Positions 178 to 32,171 of a stretch of DNA of 64,000 nucleotides are shown here, piece after piece. The first letter of the stretch is position 1. The number at the start of each line of letters is the position of its first letter. Both the position numbers and the translations under genes were made by a program. This stretch comes from Yuukianura sp. NJ FZ-2021 (lineage: Eukaryota). The notes beneath the pieces are model-generated. The model was not told the origin of the DNA, searched no databases, and saw only the letters and a list, made by a program, of their open reading frames with translations. The stretch lies in contig CM102284.1 in the NCBI GenBank assembly GCA_046563655.1, forward strand, positions 8,432,001-8,496,000. Direction: 5' to 3'.

Positions 178-3100
178 ATTTTTGCACAACCTTCTTTTGC
201 AACTTTTGATTGTTGGCTGGAAGAATCGTAAGTTCAACGTAGTTACGTTTTTTCTGTTTTAACTTAACTTTTAACGTTTAGGTTAAAAGCATTAAAAAGC
301 ATTGAAACCGGTACTCAAGACCTCTTGATGTTCAGTGATGTTTAGTGACAGTTTGATGCTTCGCATTAGAAATGCGTAGCAGTTGCATTCATTGATCCTA
401 ATTAATCCACAAAGTGGTTTCGCGGTTAAGCTTTTTTGACGCGGAAAAAGTCAACTGCGAGTGAAAACAGCGTGTTAATTTTGGGTTTTTGCGTTTAACA
501 GGTTACTGGATCACTCCTTTCATGTTTTACTGACGCAGAAGTTTACAATTAAGAGACTCCGACGGTGCTACTACGAATGGGCGTTTCTACGTAGTGAAAA
601 CTTGGTTCAATTACTAATCGACTGTCTAAGGTCCCTCGCAACCAGAGATTTTATCCTCCTGAGCAAAATCCCATCTTACGTTGTAAGTCAATCACTCAAG
701 TAATTACAAATTAATTAACTAATCAACTTTCCTCTTTGTTTTAAACTTTAAATTGAGTTGAAGCACCTCCACGCGTAAACAATTAAACTTTTCCTATTGT
801 TTTTCTTTGCAGAGTGGCGTGTATCGCTTACCCACCGACTTCCCAATGCCTACGACTGGAGTAGCAGTCATCCCTGCTACAATTTCACTCGAGTCTTCAG
901 CAGAGTCCTTTAAAAGTGCTAAAATGACTGAGCCTATTCCAATTCTCGTGACTCCTCTGCCAACAGACTCCGGAGATGATTTATCAACAAGTTCAAAACA
1001 AAGTAAATCCAATTTAGAATCAATTCTGGAAGCCAATCAAGTAGCAGAGGAGGAAGAAGAAGAAGTTTCTACTGCTGGAGATTCACTCGGAATTCCTAAA
1101 TTCTCGTATTCTTATGGATCTCCAATCGTGTCCGTCCCGAACTTCTCCGAAATTGAAGATCGACCAAGGTTGGATCCAATGATTTCAACTTTCAAATCTG
1201 AAAAGAAACAAGCAATTTCAGAAGAATTCAAGTCACCGACGAATCAAAACTACTCGAATGCTGGAACGAAGTCGTTTCTGGAGTCGGGTGGATTTTTACC
1301 ACCGGAAACTCTCGGGAACTTTCCACTGCCGCAGAAAGGGCAAAGTCTAAAAGACTTTTTGTCGTCGTTGTCTGATGCTAGTCAACCTGATCTGGACAGA
1401 GAAAATTCACATTTCAACATTTCAGAGGCTCTCATCTCTGCTTTTGAGAGCATGAAGGTCAAACAGAAGTTGGAAGCACTGCAGGAACAAAGACATTTGG
1501 AAAGAATGGAAGCCATGTTTGGAGGAGAGCCAATCAGAGATCAGTATCATCGCTGGGGAGGCTTGAAAATTAAAAAGAAGTTTCCGCTCAGACAACGTCC
1601 TGAACTACCATACACTGAAACGGAAGAATCAGAGTGAGTTTTTAAAAAGTTTTCATAATTTTGAAAAATTTGAAGATTTTCAAAAAAATTAAGATTTTGA
1701 TTTTCTTGTTCCACAGATTCGAATTTTGGAGGCAAAGCAGACACCCGCCGGCTGAAATCAAGAAGAAACCAAGAATTTCTCTCCAAATTGGATCCGAAGG
1801 GCAAAGTGAAAGTTTGATGTCAACAACCGGTGAGTTTTCAAAAATGAATAAATTGTGGAATTTTTGCTAATTTTTATGAAAATGTTTTTTTTAGAAGCGA
1901 CTACAAGCGGAAGTCCGTCGCTTTCGTCTTCTTCAGAGGATCTCAACTCGTGTTCCTTCTCTGCAGAGAATGTGGCTCTGAATTTGCTGCGTAACGTGAG
2001 ACTTGAAGAAGCGAAGTTACCGGAAGCTAGCACTTTGCAGTGGCTGGTCACAGAACGAGATTGTCCACAAGCACTTCTGCCGCTCCCTAAAAACTGGACG
2101 AGCAACAGCGAAAGTGAGACGGACAGCTTGGATAAAAGTATTCGACTCCGCGGAACCGTAGAGTGGGCACCTCCAAGACCGCAGGTTAGACAGAAAACAT
2201 TCATTTTTCAAAAATTTTGGGTTTTTTAAAATTTTGGTTTTTGTCACTTCTAGATTATTTTCACAATTCATCCTACTGCGACGTAAGTCTTGACTTTTTT
2301 TTTAGATTAATTCATAATTTAGTTGATTAATCAGCGATTTTTGATGTTTTTAGGCTACAAATATTGACTGAGACGCAGAAGTATCGATGTGCTGGATGTG
2401 GTATGATGTTATACTTGTTTACTCGAACGGTCGTATAATCTAACTCCAGGTGTACTGGCAGCATCCAGTATAATTTGAAATATTTTTTTGTAAAAGGTGT
2501 GAGGGTTCAAGCGAAGTATGCCAGCACATATCGCTTCTGTCACTACCTTGGAAGATACTTTTGTTCTGGCTGTCACTCCAAGAAAACTGCCCGTCTTCCG
2601 CAGATGATCATTCACCGTTGGGATTTCAGCTAGTAAGACACACAAAACTCAATTTTCACACATTTGAATGTGAATTTCAAAATTTTGACAAATATTTTTC
2701 GTTTTTTCAGTTACCAAGTATCAAATTTCAGTGCAACTCTGCTGGAAAGTCTTCGGTTTGATCCAGTTTACAATCTGATGGGAATCAATCCTGCTTTGGC
2801 TCGCAGGGGGCGTGTAGGCACTTTCAGAACTTATCGACTCCAACTCAAATTTCTTGGACAGTATTTGCAAAACTGCAAAGCAGCTACTGAGTAAGTTACA
2901 AAATTTTCGAAATTTCAAAATTTCAAGTTGCAAAAACTTTTTTGTTTTTTGGTGTAGATTATATGAGGAAGCGAATTCTGTGCCGTCGTACTACACTGCT
3001 GATCCGGATTTGTACTCAATTGAAGATTTGATTCAACTGAGATTCGGAACTGGCCTTCCGCTCAAAGTGAAAGAAATTGTGGCCAAGGGGATCCAGCATG

Positions 3101-10069: not shown

Positions 10070-10452
10070 TTGACTTTAGTGAATTTAGTGAATTTAGTGA
10101 CCTTGACCATCGATTTATTGTTTCCATCATTGCAGTCGAGACTACTGGAGTCTACGGGGAAGAAGGCCGACGTCTACTCAATTCCATTGGACATCGCCTC
10201 TCAGAAGCCACCGGTGACAATCGAGCAACAGCCTTCCTCTTTCAACGAATTAGCCTTGCCATCCAAAGAGGAAATGCCACATCTATATTGGGAACCTTAC
10301 CGTCAGGAAAAGAACTCTACGAAATCTATATGATTTAAACATTTTTTCAATAACCTCTTTAAATACCTCAACCTGCCTCTGGCAGGTGTAAGTTTTCTCA
10401 GTTCTGTTGTTAAATAAAGAAAATATTCGAAAAAAAAAAAAAAAAAAAAAAA
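10070..10452 (+). mobile_element. 5'-truncated non-LTR retrotransposon, CRE-clade-like restriction-like endonuclease C-terminus
   Basis: A frame not listed in the ORF track reads IAVETTGVYGEEGRRLLNSIGHRLSEATGDNRATAFLFQRISLAIQRGNATSILGTLP, stop at 10338. AATAAA at 10413, poly(A) 10430-10452, 13-bp target-site duplication AGACAGAAATTTA at 10057-10069 and 10453-10465. Confidence 0.9.
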
Positions 10453-13700: not shown

Positions 13701-16700
13701 AAATTTTAAATTTTCAAAATTTTCAAATTTTCAGAATTTTGAGTTTTCTACTTTCACTTTTGTAAAAAAGTCCTTTCTCTTGCTTTCACTTACTCTTTCT
13801 GCGGAGAGAATCGACGGAGTTTATTTATTTCGGCATCCAGGAGGTACAGAACAAAAGCTGAAAAAGTATGAAACTCCAAATTAAAAATTCAGAACATGTA
13901 AGAACTTTTTTAAAAGGAGTTTTTGAAATTTTAAATTGTGGATTTACAGTTGGCTGAAACTGCTGAACTGATGCAAACTGACAGTTCCCAGAGAACGCCA
14001 CTTTCAGAGTGTGATCTGCGTACTTGTGCTGCCAGTGTTTTGAACAAATTGAATTTTTCAGATTCAATTCCAAACTTCCATCGAGACAGACTTTGCCGAC
14101 GTGTGACTGCTCCTCGATTTCTTTCCAAAATCCACTGGGAAAGTGTATCTGCATCTACGTGCTGTTTCACATAATTGGCCAAAAACTTTGGATTTTCCAC
14201 AAGATACTGCTCAACCTTGTCTAAAACAATGAAAAACACAAATTTAGACACAACAGTTTTCAAAAACAAAAAAATTAGTACAATTGCTGCGTTGTTTTTG
14301 ATTTTTCCAGTACCTGGATCCAACGGTTTCATTTTTGTTACTGCAGTAGATGAGCCGGAACCTGTTATAAAAAATTTCGAAATTTCAGAATGCAATTCCT
14401 TCAAAATCAATTCGACTCAAAATTTCAGTTTTTTTGAAGTACAGGTAGGAAAAAGATTGCTTCTGAACAAAATGAGAGCAAATTGGAAATAATGAATGCA
14501 TTGTCACGTAGTGACTTCTCGACTCGAACTTTTATGTTGCTATTTAGGTCATTGCGATTGTGCAAATTTTGCAAAAATGTAGTAAAGTTTTGCAAAAAAT
14601 TTTTGCACCTGAACAATCCACACAAGATCCGCTCACAGCACTTCCCATTTCATCTAAGAACGGAGACCAGCGTAAAAAAGGCAGCACATTTTCACATTCG
14701 ATGCAGAAAACGTTCTTCAACAAATTCACAAAATGTCTTTTGTTTTTTATATGTTTTTGAAATTTTGAAAACTACTGTTGCTATGGAAACCAGTACGTGA
14801 TAACTTTTGATTAGAAGTGTGGCTGACTTCAAAAGGAAATGAAATTGGAAATGAGATTTCCCTGGATTCTCTCTCTTTTGTCACGCTTTCTCTTTTTTTT
14901 CAAAATTCGAAAAACACTTTTTTTTTTGTTCCAGCCTTCGAAACTTTTTGACTTTGCGACTCCTGACGGTGGAAATGGTTCGCTAGAGCGGAAAAAATCA
15001 ATTGAGATGACGAAGAAGAGAGGCTGATGAAATGATCTTTTCTGTTCTAAAACAGACAACGTTAGAGAGGATCCTTGCAAATTTTTTGCAAAGATTTTTT
15101 GCAGAATCGTCTACTTTTTGCAACATCCGGAATCCCTTTCCTCACTTTGGCTTCATTCGTAAACTGTCTAGGCAGATCCTAAATCTTCTGGCAAACTCTG
15201 AAATAGAAGGAGAAAGTTGAACCTTTTTAGTCTAAAAGAGAAGCTGCAAAAACTTTCACTTTTGTAAAAATATCACGACCCGCTTCGGATTATATGCAAA
15301 CAGTGTTTACCTAATCCTAGCCTAATCTTGTAGTCTAAAAAACTGGAAAGTTAAACTTTTGTTCTATTGTTATAAAAAAGGAAGTTTTTGTTGAAAGTGA
15401 AGTGGAAACTGACTCTTGTGAAACTTTAGACGCAGAGTGAGTCACGCTAACTTTCTGCGGTGGAGAAAGTTGGAAGAATGGGAACAACTTTTTCTTTTTG
15501 CCAAACTGGATTTGCAACAGGTACTTTCACTACTTTCACCAAGTCAACCCAGACACAAAACATGTTTGTCCACACTGCAACGCATGTTAGTGGCAAAGTG
15601 ACCTTTGACCTTTACAACGAGGTCAACAGACACCAAATTGCATCAACACAAATGACAAATTTTCAACCAAAAAAACCAAAAACTCAAAAAACAAAAAAAA
15701 ATCCACCAAAAAAGTAAAATTTCAACAGGAAAGAGAAACACAAGAGAAAACTTCAACAAAAACAGAAAATGAAAGAATTCAACAGGAAAGAGAAAACTGG
15801 ATATTTTCTTCATTTTTGTTTTTAAATTTTTGTGACTGACCTGTAAGGCTCATGGGCCCTTTGAGAAGTTTCTCAAAGGGAGAAGTGAGTTGGCTGTTTG
15901 ATGACGAAGTGAGTGACAGTCGTGGTCCACTGCTGGACACGCTGGAACTGCTCCCATGGTGTCCAGGACTGGCCAAAAACAGGGGCCCTTCTGAAGGGAC
16001 ACATCCTTGGTGGTACTTGGAGGTCGAAGGGCTCCCTCCGCAGTGCCCCCCACTGGGGGACGAGGGCAGGGACAAAGTTGGCAACTGACAAGGACGTTTG
16101 CAAGTACTCAAGAAATTCTCAGATCCTGTTTGGATTCTAGAAGGCGAAGGAGTTCGCGGACGAAAAGTCGTTGGTCTGCCAGGCGACAACAGGCGACCGC
16201 GTTTCTGCCGATCTCCTGGACCATCTCCTGACAAAATTTTCAAAATTTCATTTCAAAATTTTGAAAACATGAAATTTTTGAAATTTGTTGCTTGCCTGGA
16301 AGAATGAGTGGTGGGAGTTTGTTGCGATTTGGCCTGGAAGACTTGGAAACCTTCATGGCCTGAAAAGTAACAGTGGCTTTCGTAGAACAAGGTAATTGCA
16401 AAGACTGGTAACGCCCAGAGCCACCGCTGCCCCGCCGCTTGACTCCACCAAGATGGTGGCTCCTGCCCTCCGTCGTTCCAACTCGACTCACCACAATTTG
16501 AATCTAAATGCCAAAAATAAAAGTGGGATCCTTTTTGTGTCTTAATTTCCCTACGCACTTCGTGATTCGCGATTCAAAATAACATTTTAATTGACCTCTA
16601 CGCTCGATTTACCCACGTCAACAACTCCTCCAGATTTTTTCAACAAAAATAGAAAGTCACAGAGTCCTTCTTTTCTTACATCACAATTAGCCTCCGCCAT

Positions 16701-32157: not shown

Positions 32158-32171
32158 GTTTCCATGGTGAC
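32158..32171. promoter_or_regulatory. RFX X-box GTTTCCATGGTGAC upstream of the CFAP97D-cyclophilin gene
   Basis: Near-palindromic X-box about 150 bp upstream of ATG 32009; consistent with a ciliary gene. Confidence 0.7.

Follow-up and report, generated by a model that had tools for sequence, protein, structure and literature searches.

What is an RFX-type X-box doing inside an intron of a phosphodiesterase (PDE) gene, a short distance ahead of a very small open exon that begins with Met-Gly, and do the two together provide the gene with a second promoter, a second N-terminus and a different place in the cell? The window, by which we mean the whole 64,000-nucleotide stretch of springtail DNA analysed here, presents this arrangement in the second of two tandem PDE genes. 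The first-pass annotation had proposed that a hidden first exon associated with the X-box makes a lipid-anchored, probably ciliary isoform, and the elements that it named, i.e., the X-box, a TATA-like element and a 40-nt exon with fitting donor phase, are all confirmed at their places on the minus strand (Table 1). Taken as a whole, an RFX-associated internal promoter in the intron of gene B that gives rise to a membrane-anchored PDE isoform is the reading that we consider on balance likely, and the strength of its parts differs.

The two PDE genes, A and B, are 60% identical and both lie on the minus strand; the assembly to which the window belongs (98.7 Mb, 22 contigs) is the setting for the genome-wide counts below. 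With the 40-nt exon as its start, the model of gene B comprises 17 exons in an unbroken frame of 780 amino acids with GT-AG ends at every intron, and both GAF and PDEase_I were matched by Pfam on the window exons, giving the arrangement of tandem GAF domains and a class I PDE catalytic domain. Against the PDB, the catalytic fragment of gene B matched PDE10A at E ~1e-27, PDE5 at 1e-20 and PDE2 at 1e-15, a fragment covering just GAF-B gave PDE5 the better score, and the named homologues among the 120 matches listed are pde-5-like or PDE10. By its catalytic fragment gene B is predicted to encode a PDE10/pde-5-like phosphodiesterase, a kind of enzyme characterised by hydrolysis of both cAMP and cGMP and by cyclic-nucleotide binding at a GAF domain. 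In a quick maximum likelihood tree of 35 sequences, made up of 33 chosen fetched proteins together with A and B and built without other PDE families, A and B are sisters (support 96) and fall into one clade with Folsomia and Orchesella (100). A sister pair inside the springtail group most likely reflects a lineage-specific duplication in springtails. Paralog A has one short first exon that contains neither Met-Gly nor Cys, and an X-box was not found at this gene, indicating that the route considered here was kept or gained in B only.

Table 1. Features of the two PDE genes and of the internal start region of gene B (positions within the window)
Feature	Position	Strand	Evidence or remark
Ser/Pro-rich N-terminus of long isoform, two exons	16503-16296 (GC donor), 16227-15841	-	open join, phase-1 end
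Second conserved intron island, non-coding (8-nt gap)	15041-14994	-	L037 4839-4894, 75% over 56 columns
Strict X-box (RFX-type site), 0 mismatches	14790-14777	-	129 nt before Met-Gly ATG
TATA-like hexamer TATAAA	14751-14746	-	weak evidence, ~3% chance per 100 nt
Upstream start-stop ATG	14697	-	sequence
11-codon upstream ORF	14689-14654	-	stop also forms AG of weak acceptor
Out-of-frame 6-codon upstream ORF, weak start context	14653-14633	-	overlaps Met-Gly ATG
Predicted alternative first coding exon, 40 nt, 13-aa head	14648-14609	-	ATG at 14648, phase-1 GT donor
Exon 2 of gene B, short, symmetric phase 1-1, ends MKPLDP	14361-14314	-	gene model
First shared core exon of gene B	14220-13948	-	gene model; L037 identity 82/90 aa
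Other 14 exons of gene B (two GAF domains and catalytic domain)	13857-10751	-	gene model, Pfam
Tandem PDE paralog A	8134-3955	-	792 aa

Several properties of the 40-nt exon can be read from the window itself. It carries the sole ATGGG of the 1,479-nt intron and its donor has the phase of the next exon; taken alone this donor is ordinary, with a score of 5.0 and rank 10 among the 96 GT sites of the intron. As an empirical null, such a mini-exon was found in 10 of 2,129 overlapping AT-rich stretches, 10 being the number that would contain the candidate itself. The more informative comparison is with relatives, for which a metagenome scan supplied three loci: L037, which is syntenic with the window across neighbouring genes; L038, a more distant springtail contig with 48% core identity; and L039, which has too little DNA upstream to cover the exon region. 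Of 46 four-fold sites compared between the window and L037, 35 differ, which means that neutral sequence is saturated, and the intron retains just two conserved islands, one of which is the 40-nt exon. Among 288 intron 40-mers compared with L037 the exon has the top score, and the 11 that score at least 26 all lie on the exon or on the second island. The L037 intron also contains a single ATGGG; a phase-1 exon of 40 nt, MGNNVGGPCTDCS, begins there and ends at an identical GTGC donor. The two exons are identical at 30 of 40 nucleotides and 8 of 13 residues (M, G, V5, G7, C9, D11, C12, S13) as compared with 11/40 and 16/40 nucleotides in the flanks, and conservation begins at the Met-Gly ATG. 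In L038 a 34-nt phase-1 exon, MGACVKHGISS, precedes the matching exon 2. The expectation that the exon would be conserved in related genomes is thus borne out, with equal length, phase and donor in L037 and a shorter exon of the same phase in L038. These comparisons argue that the 40-nt exon is real, is under selection and behaves like an alternative first exon of the coding sequence; it is very probably translated as an N-terminus.

Gene models from other arthropods present the same choice of ends. Folsomia candida has two models of the gene that diverge just before the core exon, one starting MGASCVK and the other with a long Ser/Pro-rich end, and Folsomia OXA56283.1 has a Met-Gly/Cys start. 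A model from Orchesella dallaii starts with Met-Gly and lacks the Cys, and the Orchesella model P0126 begins at the Met equivalent to that of exon 2, an exon whose equivalents measure 39 nt (L037) and 36 nt (L038); its Met (MKPLDP) may serve as an internal start too. Met-Gly/Cys starts are found in six decapod clusters, there beside other starts, and in one barnacle, all of them automatic annotations (e.g., the decapod RefSeq isoform XP_069948734.1 and Pollicipes XP_037068397.1). Of the 92 near-full-length homologues that start with Met, 9 have Met-Gly and each of these 9 has an early Cys, and a profile search, which returned mostly short fragments, gave zero new Met-Gly/Cys heads. A Trp among the first residues was seen in 27 of the 92, often followed by basic and hydrophobic residues, and insects may use an amphipathic N-terminus instead of acylation. 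The long Ser/Pro-rich N-terminus has homologous stretches in L037 and in Folsomia XP_035707314.1. Its exon ending at 16296 has a GC donor (16296-16290, minus strand), and GT occupies that place in L037. Of the exchange originally proposed, a long N-terminus swapped for a membrane anchor, the replacement of one conserved end by a conserved alternative first coding exon holds up, and the anchor is a prediction from the residues of the head.

The X-box was assessed by its frequency, its conservation and its spacing. In the 98.7-Mb genome, with both strands searched and palindromic sites counted twice, the strict pattern matches 177 times versus 5 for the reversed pattern, 9 after a change of the last base and 7 after a swap of the centre, i.e., it is ~20-fold enriched over near-miss controls. 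Codon usage was considered as a cause of this enrichment and rejected; the near-miss patterns give 9 and 7. A strict X-box is also part of a dispersed repeat (L002, L009, L021, L050), whose copies raise the genome-wide count; compared with two retrotransposon loci that have RFX domains (L060, L061), this repeat proved dissimilar, and no element lies at the PDE X-box. L037 has one X-box of looser consensus in 6,890 nt, located 156 nt before the orthologous ATG, and 4 of 200 shuffles reach one match; the window site is the nearer to consensus. Conservation of the X-box, which the first-pass annotation had also put at stake, is therefore seen in the closer relative in this looser form. The candidate in L038 has 2 mismatches and is matched in 60 of 200 shuffles, i.e., it is explained by chance. 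In C. elegans the preferred zone for X-boxes is -50 to -200 (PMC1794439, excerpt), a range that includes the PDE site. In Drosophila an X-box alone is not predictive; RFX control is better predicted by a conserved X-box, present in 70% of targets vs 23% of controls (PMC2375033, in the part available). Motif enrichment, conservation in L037 and spacing indicate that the PDE X-box is probably functional, yet they are no proof of a ciliary protein, because an X-box is a mark of expression in ciliated cells and not of the location of the protein. RFX control of the short isoform is, on this evidence, distinctly probable.

The neighbours of other X-boxes give these numbers a context. Strict X-boxes lie 81 nt before IFT74 and 159 nt before a B9 gene, and the only other X-box of the window (32158-32171) is 149 nt before a Hemingway/CFAP97-like gene with a Pfam score just below the cut-off. 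The frame of the latter (32009-30700, minus strand) continues into a cyclophilin domain and is possibly one fused ciliary gene or two neighbours. When 43 other strict sites from among the first 100 matches listed were examined, the ciliary neighbour was firm for 1 and probable for 2, 4 were copies of a single dispersed repeat, at least 4 fell within protein-coding exons whose genes are not ciliary, and for most no neighbour could be named. These 43 include the IFT74 site and sites 199 nt before a DUF4470 gene, which we take to be DNAAF3, and 174 nt before a CDK-family kinase whose best PDB matches are CDKL5 and CDK1 and which is presumably CDK20. Among six control loci an X-box was present at two B9 genes and was not found, in the loci fetched, at a third B9 gene, BBS5 or both GMP_PDE_delta genes, one of which is UNC119. 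Short Cys/Pro-rich frames occur at an X-box-typical distance at L052 (170 nt) and L024 (200 nt) and are candidate sperm or ciliary proteins; a likeness of L024 to the long exon was discarded on finding no tblastx support, and L022 gave no PDB match. L006 has at 2387-2662 (minus strand) a type II chorismate mutase domain (E 2e-17), which in an animal genome is a possible case of horizontal transfer. As for RFX itself, the genome has two canonical RFX domains. In addition there are ~40 dispersed frames, many >1,000 aa, with a divergent RFX DNA-binding domain; one of them, L060 (737-3976), also has a reverse transcriptase domain, L061 (820-4737) is similar, and a 3′ fragment of this retrotransposon family lies between the PDE paralogs at 10093-10335 on the plus strand.

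The rule for N-myristoylation is a Gly at position 2 and a small residue at position 6, and dual acylation calls for a Cys nearby as well. The window head has Gly2, Ser6, Cys9 and Cys12; in place of Ser6, L037 has Gly and L038 has Lys. Myristoylation of Gly2 and palmitoylation of Cys9 and Cys12 are predicted from these residues, the myristoylation signal being valid insofar as the Met-Gly ATG is the true start site. The motif for high-affinity UNC119 cargo, the kind released by ARL3, calls for small or medium residues at positions 3-5, and the four springtail heads, with S-A-V in the window, N-N-V in L037, A-C-V in L038 and A-S-C in Folsomia, all fit it; Val5 is linked to weaker UNC119B binding (both points from an excerpt of PMC8246649). 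The decapod heads depart from the motif, their third residue being Leu. An UNC119 gene is present in the genome. Delivery by UNC119/ARL3 into the cilium is the most likely destination, and that the protein is inside the cilium is a proposition we advance tentatively, as a little short of an even call.

The earlier reading of the start region was right in its features but overlooked two things: an AG that precedes the Met-Gly ATG by 5 nt, and three further ATGs, at 14697, 14689 and 14653, on the way from the TATA-like element to that start. One of the three is in good context, and the context of the Met-Gly ATG is better. L038 has an in-frame ATG 18 nt upstream of its Met-Gly ATG. No 5′-UTR donor that would remove the upstream ATGs is convincing (best score 3.2), and a 5′-UTR intron from ~14729 to 14654, which would remove two of them, was rejected because a donor is lacking (score -2.5). 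In L037 and L038, A-rich TATA look-alikes are seen by eye ahead of the exon. The second conserved island sits ~200 nt upstream of the X-box; it may act in regulation together with the X-box, or it may be a promoter from which a third isoform, with its start in exon 2, is made.

Several other accounts of these features have to be weighed. That an intron simply happens to contain an X-box and a Met-Gly mini-frame is barely credible: neither the donor nor the TATA-like element stands out by itself, but codon-wise conservation despite saturated neutral divergence, the same design in a third species and the X-box counts (177 vs 5-9) point the other way, and L037 and L038 have largely refuted coincidence already. 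The same nucleotides could instead belong to a 45-nt symmetric internal cassette (14653-14609) of the long isoform, in which Met-Gly would be internal and unmyristoylated and palmitoylation of the cysteines would still be possible. The AG at 14655-14654 does yield an open phase 1-1 exon, and the presence of an in-frame AG upstream in all three species makes such a cassette possible. However, the position of this acceptor varies by species (5 nt before the ATG in the window, 32 nt in L037, 2 nt in L038) and two of the three are weak, with scores of 1.6, 2.0 and 6.4, respectively, on a scale where 31 true acceptors span -2.5 to 13.2. The residues before the Met are also unconserved, this Met is the first residue of the models from Folsomia and decapods, and no Met-Gly/Cys head was found at an internal position among the fetched proteins, all of which make a cassette quite improbable.

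A further account accepts the promoter and exon as ancestrally real and supposes that upstream ORFs here largely silence the anchored isoform or control its translation. It draws on the three upstream ATGs of the window, against none in 90 nt of L037, and on the placement of one upstream ORF ending 6 nt before the start and another overlapping it. The intact exon, donor and X-box, the last of these nearer to consensus than its L037 counterpart, the stronger context of the Met-Gly ATG, and a transcription start that may be downstream of the upstream ATGs leave this only a slim prospect. The account that bears most directly on cellular location grants a true first exon and a lipid anchor but assigns the anchor to the dendrite, plasma or Golgi membrane in the manner of PDE10A2, the X-box being incidental or broadly neuronal. 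Palmitoylation of PDE10A2 gives membrane anchoring and dendritic transport (PMC3010063, excerpt), few of the sampled X-boxes are tied to ciliary genes, the L038 X-box is not significant, and the decapod Leu3 departs from the UNC119 motif. Against this, the position of the X-box is kept in L037, its spacing resembles that at the IFT74, B9 and CFAP97-like genes, and proteins are known to be targeted to cilia by dual acylation (PMC6678300, excerpt), so that a purely non-ciliary anchor appears unlikely.

In the mechanism we favour, an internal promoter and a membrane anchor, RFX would bind the X-box, for which the motif and its conservation are seen, transcription would start upstream of 14648, and the 40-nt exon would be joined by phase-1 splicing to exon 2 and the exons of the shared core. 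Translation from Met-Gly would be followed by removal of the Met, myristoylation of Gly2 and palmitoylation of Cys9 and Cys12, steps that sequence and conservation suggest. The product would be a 780-aa membrane-anchored GAF-GAF-PDE in ciliated cells, either sensory neurons or spermatids, and the upstream promoter would make the long Ser/Pro-rich form. UNC119/ARL3 would then carry the anchored PDE into the cilium. In its broadest form the proposal is that in springtails, and perhaps in pancrustaceans widely, RFX picks the first exon of PDE10 and so gives an acylated, UNC119-delivered PDE10 that ends cAMP/cGMP signals in sensory cilia or sperm tails, a possibility that we hold more loosely still than the ciliary location in the springtail.

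Alternative N-terminal exons that place phosphodiesterases are already known in mammals. What would be new, for an arthropod PDE10, is the coupling of an intronic X-box to an acylation exon that is conserved; no paper on this was found in the open-access literature. If true, the enzyme would shape cyclic-nucleotide signals in arthropod ciliated cells and would be a candidate ciliary phosphodiesterase for arthropods, a signalling enzyme of general use that the ciliogenic programme has supplied with an address in the cilium, and the 13-residue head would offer a tag for testing. A practical consequence would be that targets specific to one isoform escape X-box screens anchored on annotated start codons. 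The 120 homologue matches listed include no Drosophila protein, and to our knowledge the fly lacks PDE10; the main model insect would therefore not reveal such an isoform.

The closest known relative of this design is mammalian PDE10A2, which is of the same family by the catalytic fragment and has an isoform-specific N-terminus with a palmitoylated Cys that anchors it to the membrane; in PDE10A2, however, the palmitoylation is on Cys11, is PKA-controlled and serves dendritic transport (PMC3010063, excerpt). Unlike PDE10A2, gene B has a Met-Gly head with two Cys residues and has it behind an X-box. PDE2A3 is another GAF-GAF PDE, with an alternative first exon for myristoylation and palmitoylation, and we know of no link between PDE2A3 and RFX. 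It belongs to a different family, the scores of PDE2 against gene B being well below those of PDE10, and its acylation is not mentioned in the available part of PMC8073060. Gly2 with a nearby Cys is shared with the dually acylated ciliary proteins CePPEF, calflagin/FCaBP, RP2 and the Lck/Fyn nlCTS (PMC6678300, excerpt), and small or medium residues at positions 3-5 are shared with the UNC119 cargoes NPHP3, GNAT1 and LCK (PMC8246649, excerpt). The Cys in the known dually acylated ciliary proteins is mostly beside Gly2, as Cys3 in RP2 and calflagin, whereas the predicted sites in gene B are at 9 and 12. Unlike those proteins, gene B carries the acylation signal on an optional exon, and its ciliary location is a prediction.

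Within the Pancrustacea, the pde-5-like models of Folsomia, decapods and Pollicipes share an alternative Met-Gly/Cys N-terminus in annotations without a stated function, and the decapod heads run into a long extension; homology of the exon in these models to the springtail exon is putative. On the side of transcription, gene B resembles the RFX/DAF-19 X-box promoters of C. elegans and Drosophila in its motif, in its 129-nt spacing to the ATG and in conservation in a second species. It differs in the position of the X-box, which is intronic and would select one isoform, whereas in RFX/DAF-19 targets the whole gene is switched on.
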